Assembly (NCBI RefSeq): GCF_055900595.2
Contig: NZ_JBVWEU010000002.1
Source of the DNA: a plasmid
Reading direction: 5' to 3' (one strand)
Length of the DNA stretch: 64,000 nucleotides
Part shown: one piece after another, positions 18,585 through 22,625 of the stretch
Layout of the letters: each line of letters opens with the position of its first letter
Numbering within the stretch: position 1 is the stretch's first letter
Made by a program: the position numbers and the translations under genes
Notes under the pieces: generated by a model
What the model saw: only the letters and a program-made list of their open reading frames with translations
What the model was told of the DNA's origin: nothing
Databases searched by the model: none

Positions 18585-19583
18585 ATGAAGAAGGTCCTTT
18601 GCGCGTTAGGCTTGATGTTCACCGCCGTCAGTTCCGCGCTGGCAACAACCTACCCCCTGACGATTGAAAACTGCGGCTATCAGGAGACCTTCACCCGGCC
18701 GCCGGAGCGCGTGGTCGCGCTGGGGCAAAATACGGTCGAAATTCTGCTGCTGCTCGGGCTGCAAAAGCAGGTGGTCGCCAGCGCCTTCTGGCCGACCAGC
18801 GTTTTACCGCAGCTGGCTGAGCAAAACGCGAAGATTAAAACCTTGACGGTGGAAATTCCGAGCCTGGAATCGGTGCTGGCGCAAAATCCTGATTTCGTTC
18901 CCGCCCAGTTGCCGCTGCTGCTGGGGCCGGAAAGCAAAGTCGCTAGGCGTGAAGATCTCGCCACCGTCGGCGTGAACAGCTACGTCTCACCGGGGGTGTG
19001 CGCCACCAAAAAGGCCACCGGCGATATGTACGGCAGCCGGCAAAAGCTGTGGGATATGACCTGGCTGTATCAGGAAATTAGCGATTTTTCCCGCATTTTC
19101 AACGTCGAAGATCGTGGTCAGGCGCTGATTGCCGATTTCAAAAAACGTGAAGCCGACCTGCGCCAGGAGTTTGGTAAAAGCAAAAAGGATCTCTCCTTCG
19201 TCTTCTGGTTCTCCAGCGCCTCACCTTCGGCCGATGCCTATGTCGGCGGCAAAAACAGCGCCTCCGGATTTATCGCCAGCGTGCTGGGCGGACATAATGC
19301 GATTACCTCCGAAACCGAGTGGCCCACGGTGAGCTGGGAGAGCATTATTGCCGCCAACCCGGATGTGATCGTGGTCGCCAGCCTAGATCGTAACCGCTGG
19401 GCGCTGGATAAAGCCGAGGAGAAGATCAAATTCCTCAAAAGCGATCCCGCCGTCAGCCAGCTGGAGGCGGTGAAAAAAGGCCATATCGTGGTCATGGACG
19501 GTCAGGCGATGAATCCGACCATTCGCACGCTTTACGGCGCGGAGCAGGTGGGCGAGCAGCTGAGAAAAATGGGGCTGAACTGA
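18585..19583 (+). CDS. eitA: ABC transporter periplasmic substrate-binding protein (siderophore/cobalamin-type)
   Basis: 332 aa with signal peptide; visibly GC-rich; first gene of a PBP-permease-ATPase-MFS unit matching the eitABCD layout of ColV-type plasmids. Confidence 0.7.
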   Translation: MKKVLCALGLMFTAVSSALATTYPLTIENCGYQETFTRPPERVVALGQNTVEILLLLGLQKQVVASAFWPTSVLPQLAEQNAKIKTLTVEIPSLESVLAQNPDFVPAQLPLLLGPESKVARREDLATVGVNSYVSPGVCATKKATGDMYGSRQKLWDMTWLYQEISDFSRIFNVEDRGQALIADFKKREADLRQEFGKSKKDLSFVFWFSSASPSADAYVGGKNSASGFIASVLGGHNAITSETEWPTVSWESIIAANPDVIVVASLDRNRWALDKAEEKIKFLKSDPAVSQLEAVKKGHIVVMDGQAMNPTIRTLYGAEQVGEQLRKMGLN

Positions 19584-20620
19584 TGAGCGTCGGCGCGATT
19601 GAGACGAGCCGCAGCATACTGCTCACCGGCTGGTGTGTACTGGCAGCGATCGTGCTGGCGCTGGTGATCGCTGTGGGCGTCAGCGTTGGCGAGCTGGCCA
19701 TCCCGCTGCAGAATGTCTTTTATGCTATCAGCAACAGAACCGGCTTAACCGCTGAGCCGCTCAACCGTATCTATGAGAGCGTTATCTGGGATTTCCGCCT
19801 CAGCCGCGCGCTGGTCGCCGCCTGCTGCGGCGCCGGCCTCGCTATCTGCGGTGTCGTGCTGCAAAGCTTGCTGAAGAATGCCCTCGCCGAACCCTACGTC
19901 CTCGGCGTCTCCGCCGGGGCCTCCACCGGCGCGGTGTCGATCGTGGTGCTGGGCCTTGGCTCTGGCGCAATTTCCCTCTCGGCAGGCGCCTTTGCCGGGG
20001 CCTTCGCCGCCTTCGCCTTTGTCGCCTTGCTGACTAACGGCGCGCGCGGCGGCAATGAGCGTACGATTCTTGCGGGCGTCGCCGCCTCGCAGTTATTTAA
20101 CGCCATCACGGCCTATACCATCAGCACCACCGCCAGCGCGCAGCAGGCGCGCGATGTGATGTTCTGGCTGCTGGGCAGCTTCAGCGGCGTCCGCTGGCCC
20201 GAATTCCAGTTGGTCATCGTGGTGGTGCTCGCGGGTCTGGCGGTCTGCCTGTGGTATGCCCGGGCGCTGGACGCGTTCACCTTCGGCGACGATGCCGCCG
20301 CCTCGCTGGGGATTGCTGTGCCGCGCGTGCGCCTGATCCTCTTCACCACTGCGGCGCTGATCACCGCCACCATCGTCAGCATGGCCGGCTCAATCGGCTT
20401 TGTTGGCCTGGTGGTGCCGCACGTGATGCGTTTCTTCTTTGGCCCGCTGCACCGAACGTTGCTGATCGCCAGCGCGCTGGCAGGGGCGATATTGATGGTA
20501 CTGGCGGACATTGCGTCGCGCCTGCTGATTGCCCCGCAAAGTCTGCCCGTTGGGGTAGTAACCGCCCTGGTTGGGGTGCCTTTCTTTGCCGTGATTATCT
20601 ACCGCTCAAGGAATAAGTGA
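19583..20620 (+). CDS. eitB: ABC transporter permease (FecCD-type)
   Basis: 345 aa, polytopic hydrophobic protein; start overlaps eitA stop. Confidence 0.7.
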   Translation: MSVGAIETSRSILLTGWCVLAAIVLALVIAVGVSVGELAIPLQNVFYAISNRTGLTAEPLNRIYESVIWDFRLSRALVAACCGAGLAICGVVLQSLLKNALAEPYVLGVSAGASTGAVSIVVLGLGSGAISLSAGAFAGAFAAFAFVALLTNGARGGNERTILAGVAASQLFNAITAYTISTTASAQQARDVMFWLLGSFSGVRWPEFQLVIVVVLAGLAVCLWYARALDAFTFGDDAAASLGIAVPRVRLILFTTAALITATIVSMAGSIGFVGLVVPHVMRFFFGPLHRTLLIASALAGAILMVLADIASRLLIAPQSLPVGVVTALVGVPFFAVIIYRSRNK

Positions 20621-21381
20621 TGAGTATTTGCGCTGAAAATATCACCTGGAAGGCAGGCAAAAAGGTCATCGTCAATAATGTCTCGCTGCGGGTGCCGCGC
20701 GGAGAAACGGTCGGACTGCTGGGGCCCAACGGCTGCGGCAAATCCTCGCTGCTGCGCGTTCTGGCGGGCCTGCGCCGCCCGGATGCAGGTCGCGTCACCC
20801 TCGACGGCCAGGATATCGCCCGGATGGCGAAAAAGCAGCTCGCCCGCCGCGTGGCTTGCGTCGAGCAACACGGCATGACCGAGGCCAATATGCGGGTGCG
20901 CGACGTCGTGCGCCTGGGACGCATTCCCCACCACTCTCCGTTCTCAAACTGGAGCGCTCAGGATGACGAAGCGATTGCCGCCGCGCTGCAGCGGGTAGCG
21001 ATGCTGGAGAAAAGCGAACAGGGATGGTTAAGCCTCTCCGGCGGCGAGCGGCAGCGGGTGCATATCGCCCGCGCGCTGGCGCAGAGCCCGAGCGAAATCC
21101 TGCTGGATGAGCCGACCAACCATCTGGATATACACCATCAGATGCAGTTAATGCAGTTGATCAGCGAGCTGCCGGTAACCAGCATTGTGGCCATTCACGA
21201 TCTTAACCATGCCGCGATGTTCTGCGATTCGCTGATCGTGATGCAGCAGGGGCAGATCCTCGCCAGCGGGACGCCGGAGGAGATTTTGTCCGAAGCGCTG
21301 CTGTGGGACGTTTTCCGGGTGAAAACCAAAATCGAGATCTCCCCTTACCACGGCAAAAAGCACATTCATTTCATCGTTTAG
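20617..21381 (+). CDS. eitC: ABC transporter ATP-binding protein
   Basis: 254 aa; Walker A GPNGCGKSS, signature LSGGERQRV, Walker B ILLDEPTNHLD. Confidence 0.75.
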   Translation: MMSICAENITWKAGKKVIVNNVSLRVPRGETVGLLGPNGCGKSSLLRVLAGLRRPDAGRVTLDGQDIARMAKKQLARRVACVEQHGMTEANMRVRDVVRLGRIPHHSPFSNWSAQDDEAIAAALQRVAMLEKSEQGWLSLSGGERQRVHIARALAQSPSEILLDEPTNHLDIHHQMQLMQLISELPVTSIVAIHDLNHAAMFCDSLIVMQQGQILASGTPEEILSEALLWDVFRVKTKIEISPYHGKKHIHFIV

Positions 21382-21392
21382 GTTGGGCGGAT

Positions 21393-22625
21393 ATGCCTCT
21401 TTTCTCCCTGCGCCCTGCGGCAACCCTCTGGCCTCCGGTGTTACTGGGAAGCCAGTTCGTTTTTAATATTGGCTTTTACGCGGTCGTACCTTTCCTCGCC
21501 CTCTTCCTGCGCGACGACATGCTGCTCTCAGGCGGACTTATCGGCCTGATCCTCGGGCTGCGTACCTTCTCCCAACAGGGGATGTTTATCCTCGGCGGGA
21601 CGCTGGCCGACCGCTATGGCGCTAAGGCGATCATTCTCGCCGGCTGCGTCGTTCGCGTCGCCGGTTTTCTCCTGCTGGCGTGCGGGGCGTCGCTGTGGCC
21701 CATTATCCTTGGCGCCTGCCTGACCGGCGTCGGCGGCGCCCTGTTCTCCCCGTCGATAGAGGCCCTGCTGGCGCGGGCCGGTACCCACAGCCAGGCCAAC
21801 GGGAAACGCAGCCGCGCCGAGTGGTTTGCGCTGTTTGCGGTATGCGGTGAACTGGGAGCGGTGATCGGCCCGGTGGCCGGAGGCGTGCTGAGCGGGATCG
21901 GCTTTCGACATATCGCCCTCGCCGGCGCGGGAATATTTCTTCTGGCGCTGGCGGTGCTCTTTTTCGGTCTGCCCGCCGACGGGCACACGACAACAACGCG
22001 CAGACGAGTCCCATGGTGGACGCCTTTGCGCCAGCCGCGCTTTGTCGCGTTTATTCTCGCCTACAGCTCATGGCTGTTGAGCTACAACCAACTCTACCTC
22101 GCTCTGCCGGTGGAGATCCAACGTTCCGGCGGCCGCGAGCAGGATCTGGCGCCGCTCTTTATGCTGGCCTCGCTGTTGATTATCACCCTCCAGCTCCCTC
22201 TCGCCCGCTTCGCCCGGCGAATGGGCGCCGTGCGCATCCTGCCGGTGGGCTTTCTGCTGCTGTCGGCTTCCTTTGCCAGCGTGGCGTTATTCGCCGCCGC
22301 CCCACCCGCCGAAAGTTGGCTGCGGTTAATGCCGGCGGCTGGTTTTGTCACGCTGCTCACCCTCGGCCAGATGCTGTTAGTGCCCGCAGCCAAGGATCTG
22401 ATCCCGCTGTTCGCCGAGGAGTCGACGCTGGGCGCCCACTACGGAGCGCTCGCCACCGCAGGAGGGTGCGCGGTGTTAGCCGGGAATTTACTGCTCGGTC
22501 ATTTACTTGACCAGGCGCTCATTCCGTCGCCGCAGGCGGTTTATCCCTGGCTTCTGCTGGCGCTGTTTCCGCTGTGCAGCGCCGTCGCCCTGCGGGCGAT
22601 CTGTCGCCCGCTGGCGGCAACATGA
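21393..22625 (+). CDS. eitD: MFS-type transporter
   Basis: ORF track begins at 21303 overlapping eitC; ATG at 21393 (MPLFSLRPAATLW...) is the likely start; about 12 predicted TM segments. Confidence 0.65.
   Translation: MPLFSLRPAATLWPPVLLGSQFVFNIGFYAVVPFLALFLRDDMLLSGGLIGLILGLRTFSQQGMFILGGTLADRYGAKAIILAGCVVRVAGFLLLACGASLWPIILGACLTGVGGALFSPSIEALLARAGTHSQANGKRSRAEWFALFAVCGELGAVIGPVAGGVLSGIGFRHIALAGAGIFLLALAVLFFGLPADGHTTTTRRRVPWWTPLRQPRFVAFILAYSSWLLSYNQLYLALPVEIQRSGGREQDLAPLFMLASLLIITLQLPLARFARRMGAVRILPVGFLLLSASFASVALFAAAPPAESWLRLMPAAGFVTLLTLGQMLLVPAAKDLIPLFAEESTLGAHYGALATAGGCAVLAGNLLLGHLLDQALIPSPQAVYPWLLLALFPLCSAVALRAICRPLAAT

Follow-up and report, generated by a model that had tools for sequence, protein, structure and literature searches.

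A GC-rich eitABCD block on an F-type virulence plasmid matches a Klebsiella pneumoniae chromosomal locus, predicted promoter included

Within a 64,000-nucleotide stretch of plasmid DNA (NCBI RefSeq assembly GCF_055900595.2, contig NZ_JBVWEU010000002.1; the window in what follows), the four adjacent genes at positions 18585-22625, which encode a binding protein, a permease, an ATPase and a major facilitator superfamily (MFS) transporter, raise two questions: where did a block so visibly richer in GC than its surroundings come from, and what does it carry across the membrane? A preliminary description had called the system eitABCD-like. The likeness can now be put more strongly, as three lines of evidence together identify the region, at the level of sequence, as eitABCD itself. 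EitA scores 696.1 bits against the EitA equivalog NF052484 (cut-off 640; full length, 1-328 of 328) and EitC 518.7 bits against NF052485 (cut-off 485), the DNA is 100% identical to many Escherichia coli plasmids (e.g., pAPEC-O2-211A-ColV and the plasmid of avian pathogenic E. coli (APEC) IMT5155), and the NCBI Prokaryotic Genome Annotation Pipeline (PGAP) assigns the names eitA, eitC and eitD on a near-identical plasmid. The order of the genes (Peripla_BP_2, FecCD, ABC_tran and MFS_1 in Pfam) matches that of eitABCD, an operon of ColV/ColBM-type and other F-type plasmids, and we found no difference between this locus and the putative iron ATP-binding cassette (ABC) transporter of APEC and extraintestinal pathogenic E. 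coli (ExPEC) on pAPEC-O2-ColV, pAPEC-O1-ColBM, pChi7122-2 and pKF3-70.

Calculation confirmed that the composition of the window is not uniform. GC content is 0.619 within 18585-22625, compared with 0.483 in the remaining window and 0.492 in the entire window, which bears out the preliminary description of the four genes as GC-rich. Among 1200 sliding 4041-bp windows (mean 0.488, standard deviation 0.050) the maximum, 0.620, starts at 18601, so the richest 4-kb stretch is the eit block itself. At 200-bp resolution both of its edges are abrupt, with GC rising from 0.405 to 0.630 at ~18600 and falling from 0.66 to 0.395 at ~22600-22800, while GC at third codon positions (GC3) is 0.72-0.80 in the four eit genes versus 0.34-0.52 in 15 plasmid neighbour genes. 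The minus strand within the block additionally carries ten antisense open reading frames (ORFs) of 85-152 amino acids, and the summed ORF length of the block (2757 amino acids) is the highest of all 4-kb windows (mean 1614, standard deviation 474). Since a Pfam search of seven of these antisense ORFs (99-152 amino acids) returned zero matches, the label "spurious" given to them earlier is a fair one. A second stretch, at 61000-64000, has a GC content comparable to that of the eit block (0.59-0.63) and corresponds to traI/traX/finO in the F-type transfer region; high GC alone is therefore no mark of foreign DNA in this window.

The source of the block was revealed by DNA alignment. We sampled seven chromosomal loci of Klebsiella pneumoniae, one on a scaffold of the type strain ATCC 13883 and six on other chromosomal contigs, and all are 98.6-98.8% identical to the plasmid over exactly 18470-22660, with the similarity ending abruptly at both edges and unrelated sequence beyond them. 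Compared as a known system, the Klebsiella chromosomal eitABCD is 98.6-99% identical in DNA to the plasmid copy across 4191 bp, a span that takes in the predicted promoter and the Fur-like box described below, and has the same GC and GC3; it differs in its flanks, and the plasmid alleles lie slightly outside the chromosomal spread (distances are 0-0.84% among Klebsiella alleles, 0.93-1.36% from plasmid to Klebsiella and 0.57% among plasmid alleles). Codon usage, which we compared by the distance and correlation of relative synonymous codon usage, tells the same story: the eit genes of the window correlate with the genes flanking the Klebsiella locus at r = 0.965 and with their plasmid neighbours at 0.51, and GC3 in the Klebsiella flank genes is 0.59-0.79 versus 0.72-0.80 in eit. 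The high GC and GC3 of the block are thus a Klebsiella chromosomal signature. Acquisition from a higher-GC donor had been proposed in the preliminary description, and the DNA identity and codon usage allow that donor to be named: the simplest reading of the sequences is a K. pneumoniae chromosome, or that of a very close relative. Capture from Klebsiella fully explains the compositional oddity.

In Klebsiella the operon has a settled home. The assembly collection has the Klebsiella EitA allele in 429 indexed blocks, of which 45 include a contig longer than 1 Mb, and the context is constant in all six places shown (LysR regulator, eitABCD, Meth_synt_2, MesX), with no mobile-element genes called among the neighbours of eit in these six places. 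Six further K. pneumoniae "plasmid" records, of 110 kb to 5.4 Mb, contain the full 10-kb chromosomal eit context; these records (two of them of 1.0 and 5.4 Mb) are probably chromosomal or chimeric assemblies. In three of the seven Klebsiella chromosomes, the type strain among them, a 1-bp indel splits eitD into two ORFs, whereas the gene is intact on the E. coli plasmids; part of the donor species may be losing eitD through decay.

None of the other hosts of the operon is the donor. Chromosomal EitA orthologues that are 82-90% identical occur in Enterobacter, Serratia, Pantoea, Raoultella, Kluyvera, Lelliottia, Kosakonia, Phytobacter, Buttiauxella and others, and orthologues that are 65-70% identical in Rhizobium, Neorhizobium, Devosia and Thalassospira. 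We rejected the orthologue hosts outside Klebsiella at a DNA identity of 68-81%, including Serratia rubidaea, Pantoea dispersa and Raoultella terrigena, whose EitA proteins are 88-89% identical (DNA 78-81%, cassette GC ~0.58). The operon is already described, and the chromosomal Klebsiella copies with their constant context, together with a proposed Fur site, were reported by Zhao et al. 2010 (PMC2797631). What we add are the exact block limits (18470-22660), the match in codon usage to Klebsiella and the conservation of the operator, which leave the field's picture unchanged.

The edges of the block suggest how it may have reached the plasmids. On the left it abuts the remnant of an IS3-family insertion sequence (IS). 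PGAP calls a partial "integrase core domain-containing protein" at the matching position of a related record (L002 12413-12577), positions 18283-18467 match, at 72% identity, the end of the gene region of an intact IS3-family transposase, and the IS-related sequence reaches ~18467, at most three bases before the block starts. The terminal sequence of the remnant is presumably akin to the right inverted repeat of IS2. Plasmid copies match the Klebsiella query over a common interval (query 2887/2890-7077), and plasmids of different backbones (ColV-type, IncFIA/FIB) have 18322-22918 in common, a unit made up of the end of the IS3-family remnant, the Klebsiella block and most of a colicin/pyocin immunity gene. 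Because the copies have the same end points and the backbones share this unit, a single capture beside an IS, followed by spread on plasmids, is the simplest reading of the sequences. The block accordingly combines the usual features of a horizontally acquired island: deviant GC, a matching donor, sharp boundaries at 18470 and 22660, and a mobile-element remnant at its edge.

The captured segment starts 5 bp before a predicted near-consensus promoter (Table 1), and the pattern TTGACAC-N17-TATAAA is kept in most Enterobacterales orthologues; a promoter at the same place has been proposed for pKF3-70 (PMC2797631). A promoter scanner that demanded T at the sixth -10 position missed TTGACA-17-TATAAA and returned a weaker overlapping pair. 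The Fur-like box that follows outscores every other site within the 200 nt upstream of eitA, and a score of at least 14 was obtained in 0.9% of 3000 shuffles; a match to the Fur consensus with three or fewer mismatches is absent from the window. In most Enterobacterales orthologues a Fur-like box scoring 13-16/19 lies 30-60 nt from the ATG, and it is kept in Hafnia, Buttiauxella and Rahnella despite divergent surroundings. Zhao et al. 2010 (PMC2797631) likewise proposed a Fur site, and our search of the literature for Fur regulation of the Klebsiella locus found typing surveys only.

The alphaproteobacterial orthologues are without the Fur box. Instead, 26 of 28 such loci (Rhizobiales, Devosia) carry TGA-N9-TCTTG ~80-165 nt upstream of eitA, over a presumed -35 element, with constant half-sites and a variable spacer; the background rate of this motif is ~0.06 per 220 nt. 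The operator of the iron regulator RirA of Rhizobiales, the iron-responsive operator (IRO) box, is TGA-N9-TCA (PMC6386902), from which the rhizobial motif differs by one base. We also considered a riboswitch for the conserved rhizobial leader (TCTTGTTT...GCTATACC) and rejected it, as Rfam gave no match at the gathering score and nothing meaningful for this leader at E values up to 10; a promoter overlapped by an IRO-like operator is the better reading of the alignment. Two bacterial classes have different operators, both resembling those of iron regulators, at the corresponding place in the promoter, which makes it likely that the eit family is iron-regulated and, if the motif is functional, the rhizobial ABC importers become candidate members of the RirA regulon.

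The four products fit an importer of the iron-chelate type. EitA matches PF01497 (E = 1.1e-28) and has a Sec-type signal peptide (...SSALA/TT) with no lipobox in its sequence, and its AlphaFold model (predicted local distance difference test score 92.3) shows the class III binding-protein fold. EitB falls under the cut-off of every named NCBIfam permease equivalog and, as the sole permease gene present, presumably forms a homodimer. EitC belongs to the ABC_tran family (PF00005, E = 7.1e-36). EitD, for which the PGAP product name is "MFS transporter EitD", has MdtH as its closest named relative (118 bits, cut-off 469). Its start is most likely the ATG at 21393, supported by the PGAP call and by the start position in orthologues, and not the GTG at 21303, which merely opens the longest ORF. 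A hairpin directly 3' of the eitD stop, within the block, is kept in the Klebsiella chromosome.

Several known importers offer themselves for comparison. FhuDBC, FepBDGC, FecBCDE, HmuTUV/ShuTUV and BtuFCD share with eit the domain set and the class III binding-protein fold, and the eit promoter is, by its motif, putatively Fur-type; unlike them, eit scores far below their equivalog cut-offs, has a single permease gene and an MFS gene in the operon, and is unlinked to a TonB-dependent receptor. In E. coli, entS-fepDGC places the gene of an MFS siderophore exporter beside those of an ABC importer. The eit cassette likewise couples an efflux-type MFS gene to an ABC importer, co-directionally or divergently, but EitD has no match to the EntS model at E ≤ 0.001 and biosynthesis genes are unlinked.

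The linkage of eitD was followed across 80 species-level loci. EitA, EitB and EitC are conserved in 31-32 genera and EitD in 21, whereas any further neighbour is shared by at most nine. The eitD gene follows eitC in most Enterobacterales; in Kosakonia, Franconibacter and relatives it stands upstream of eitA in divergent orientation. Large neighbours checked as receptor candidates have FhlA-like, MutS, dehydratase or patatin domains; one of them, a ~699-residue protein upstream of eitA in Enterobacter and Lelliottia, was rejected as a TonB-dependent receptor and is an FhlA-like sigma-54 activator. The chromosomal site of the cassette differs in almost every genus. In Enterobacter, Lelliottia, Leclercia and Silvania it lies between hypD-hypE-fhlA-like genes and a MutS-family gene, and in enteric bacteria horizontally acquired DNA is particularly frequent around mutS.

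Overall, we regard it as likely that the block is a 4191-bp fragment of a K. pneumoniae chromosome, captured once and encoding an iron-chelate importer that is probably Fur-repressed, with EitD exporting the ligand. Beyond what the alignments and counts establish (identity, composition, donor, block boundaries and conservation of operator-like motifs), we infer the regulation by iron, which way transport runs, what EitD does and to what class the ligand belongs, and these would fit together as follows. The native promoter contained in the fragment would drive transcription, and Fe-Fur would probably repress it at the box 3' of the -10 element. A small iron chelate would cross the outer membrane through a receptor encoded elsewhere, or by diffusion through porins, and would be bound in the periplasm by secreted EitA, a role suggested by its family membership. 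EitA would then dock on a type II (BtuCD/FecCD-like) ABC importer of composition EitB2-EitC2, an architecture expected from one FecCD permease gene and one ATPase gene, and ATP would drive the ligand into the cytoplasm. Finally, efflux-type EitD would probably export the iron-free ligand or a related molecule; that it exports or recycles free ligand is our guess.

Several observations weigh against this reading. The Fur and IRO sites are motif matches only, and the TCTTG half of the IRO-like site, itself one base off consensus, coincides with the -35 box. None of the sampled Klebsiella alleles is identical to the plasmid allele, so the donor is named here as a species and not as an exact strain or lineage. 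A TonB-dependent receptor or siderophore biosynthesis genes are linked to the cassette in 0 of the 80 species-level loci, and eitD is absent from Serratia rubidaea, Hafnia, Rahnella and every Rhizobiales locus, which makes it a frequent accessory that the importer can do without. Among the characterised proteins structurally near EitA, binders of heme, molybdate, siderophores and B12 lie about equally far away. Finally, a plasmid with eitABCD gave no iron-uptake phenotype (Mellata et al. 2012, PMC3251573) in assays on chrome azurol S (CAS) agar and in dipyridyl medium with FeSO4, heme or hemoglobin.

The negative phenotype also speaks for a rival view, that eitABCD is a silent passenger in E. 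coli, intact yet useless in the absence of its cognate receptor or ligand and kept only by linkage to the virulence region. The block indeed travels without a receptor and sits among IS remnants and pseudogenes, and its predicted native promoter and Fur-like operator moved with it while receptor and biosynthesis genes did not. However, four intact frames and the native promoter persist across ~200 plasmid records at 95-100% identity, and it is in some Klebsiella chromosomes that eitD is frameshifted instead. We consider the passenger view possible but lean against it. That no receptor or biosynthesis genes came along is a plausible reason for the operon's silence when assayed in E. coli, and it warns against taking eit for a functioning iron system: APEC/ExPEC typing routinely counts eitABCD as an iron-acquisition "virulence gene" without a substrate or phenotype having been shown.

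A second rival concerns the ligand, which could be something other than a ferric siderophore (e.g., heme, a corrinoid, or another metal chelate or cofactor). The preliminary description had regarded the substrate as not established, and this agrees with the literature, where the uptake assays were negative (PMC3251573) and other papers use the word "putative"; later work, including experimental studies of eit sought from 2019 onwards, yielded the same putative label and typing surveys only. The suggestion in the preliminary description of a siderophore- or cobalamin-type binding protein was right as to class (PF01497), which sequence and fold narrow no further. The closest solved structures to EitA come from structural genomics and are ligand-unassigned: 4MLZ of Jonesia denitrificans (32% identity, template modelling scores 0.82/0.91, E = 1.6e-29), then 4N01, 5CR9, 4LJS and 4HN9. 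They are followed by the heme binders ShuT, HmuT and BhuT, by MolA, by the siderophore binders YfiY, CeuE, VctP and FepB, and by BtuF, and a fold search with the EitA model did not separate these ligand classes. Among these characterised structures heme binders lead (ShuT, E = 2e-17) together with MolA (4e-16), ahead of siderophore binders (~1e-15) and BtuF (5e-15).

NCBIfam gave a similar picture, with the equivalogs for heme, B12, ferric citrate, enterobactin, hydroxamate and "F420-0" importers all missed by wide margins. As a heme importer, EitA scored 35.5 bits against IsdE (cut-off 298.65) and EitC 232.5 against NF010068 (cut-off 261); as a B12 importer, the scores were 27.8 bits against a cut-off of 234 for BtuF, 220 against 461 and 212.9 against 334 for BtuC, and 130.5 against 281 for BtuD. 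For all three ABC parts the second-best models are the "putative F420-0 ABC transporter" set TIGR03868/03869/03873 (174.2, 285.2 and 282.8 bits; cut-offs 392.4, 437.35 and 372.4, respectively), and these actinobacterial systems, like 4MLZ, are without an experimentally assigned ligand. No homology search assigned the system to a non-iron substrate.

These second-best models, the order of the fold matches, the missing iron phenotype (PMC3251573) and the unlinked siderophore receptor and biosynthesis genes all speak for a ligand other than a siderophore. On the other hand, the matches lie far under the family cut-offs, the differences in fold score are small, and the Fur- and IRO-like operators favour an iron-related ligand, with which heme is compatible but B12 or F420 is not. 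Tests with heme and hemoglobin were negative, though the host may have lacked a receptor (PMC3251573). We therefore hold a ligand other than a ferric siderophore to be rather unlikely overall: our best estimate is a ferric chelate, taken up in the natural hosts by way of a receptor whose gene lies elsewhere; heme or some other iron-related ligand is a serious alternative, and a non-iron ligand is unlikely given the conservation of the operators. The ligand question is beyond sequence analysis. (The "EitABCD" of an Enterococcus faecalis preprint, examined as a lead, is a stray earlier name for the YclQ-like FitABCD and is unrelated.)

An improbable variant is that eit, which is chromosomal in at least 30 genera, mostly plant- or soil-associated Enterobacterales and Rhizobiales, and appears to be under Fur- or RirA-type control, is a widespread orphan importer for an unrecognised class of chelate, distinct from classical siderophores, heme and B12. 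The ligand (e.g., a small metallophore or an iron complex of plant origin) would then cross the outer membrane without a dedicated receptor and EitD would recycle its free form, which would account for the negative CAS, heme and iron assays.

The two remaining alternatives concern not the ligand but the origin of the block, for which we prefer capture from Klebsiella. The GC excess could be intrinsic to the eit family, a product of hydrophobic membrane proteins and family codon choice, instead of a donor signature. Cassette GC does equal or exceed that of its own flanks in 73 of the 80 species-level loci (e.g., 0.525/0.461 in Hafnia, 0.497/0.439 in Cedecea and 0.517/0.430 in Prodigiosinella). 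However, the plasmid copy is nearly identical to Klebsiella and its codon usage fits unrelated Klebsiella neighbours, while orthologues in lower-GC hosts have values of 0.50-0.55, so that 0.62 tracks the host; even in the closest Enterobacterales relatives (EitA 85-90% identical) cassette GC is 0.52-0.61, below that of the plasmid. A family effect would be worth a few points at most, and we find this explanation very hard to sustain. Integration of a plasmid eit block into the Klebsiella chromosome, the reverse direction of transfer, would suit the greater likeness of plasmid alleles to one another than of chromosomal copies (Zhao et al. 2010, PMC2797631) and the want of a plasmid-identical allele in the Klebsiella sample, but it is scarcely credible, as the Klebsiella locus occupies one fixed site with edges free of IS or plasmid sequence and a composition like that of its neighbours, orthologous cassettes are chromosomal throughout Enterobacterales, and it is on plasmids that the block is compositionally foreign and adjoins an IS remnant.

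Table 1. Coordinates of the eit block, its predicted regulatory elements and its immediate flanks in the window
Positions	Strand	Feature	Basis
18271..18469	+	3' remnant of an IS3-family element with terminal sequence, abutting the block	PGAP, similarity
18470..22660	+	Block of presumed Klebsiella derivation, 4191 bp: promoter, eitABCD, 35 bp of 3' flank	DNA alignment
18475..18503	+	Predicted sigma-70 promoter: TTGACA 18475-18480, 17-nt spacer, TATAAA 18498-18503	Sequence reading
18514..18532	-	Fur-box-like operator GCAAATGAAACTCATTATT, 14/19 to consensus GATAATGATAATCATTATC, just 3' of the -10 box	Best-match scan
18585..19583	+	eitA, periplasmic substrate-binding protein, 332 amino acids	NF052484, PF01497
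19583..20620	+	eitB, FecCD-family permease, 345 amino acids	PF01032 (E = 4.5e-86)
20620..21381	+	eitC, ABC ATPase, 253 amino acids from ATG 20620 (in-frame GTG 20617)	NF052485, PGAP start
21393..22625	+	eitD, 12-transmembrane-type MFS transporter, 410 amino acids from ATG 21393	PF07690 (E = 1.9e-30)
22628..22651	+	Hairpin, 9-bp stem, CAGAGCGGG-taacag-CCCGCTCTG, without a T-run after it	Junction sequences
22703-22960	-	Colicin/pyocin immunity gene, 85 amino acids, intact	PF01320 (E = 1.3e-38)
22961-23296 (annotated 22961-23194)	-	Truncated colicin/pyocin DNase domain	PF21431 (E = 3.3e-32)

To the right of the block, the DNase domain match is limited to positions 44-124 of the PF21431 profile and, judging from these matches, 22703-23296 is what is left of an E-type colicin, klebicin or S-type pyocin module, the killing gene having lost its N-terminal parts.

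The wider window is a classic ColV-type virulence region, with etsABC just upstream of eit and F transfer genes at the far end. Positions 26580-33790 and the sequence downstream encode a cysteine hydrolase, an AllH-like protein, FdrA, a YlbE-family protein, a carbamate kinase, a cytosine permease and a LysR regulator, a cluster that resembles the oxamate/carbamate (allantoin-branch) genes of E. coli and whose link to virulence is not obvious. The first 9.5 kb (1-9.5 kb) include a RepB-family replication initiator, an oxidoreductase of the short-chain dehydrogenase/reductase family, an omptin protease and a Mig-14 homologue. These four genes lie, together with a tyrosine recombinase, in an AT-rich stretch at 2000-9000 (GC 0.33-0.42), the opposite compositional outlier of the window.

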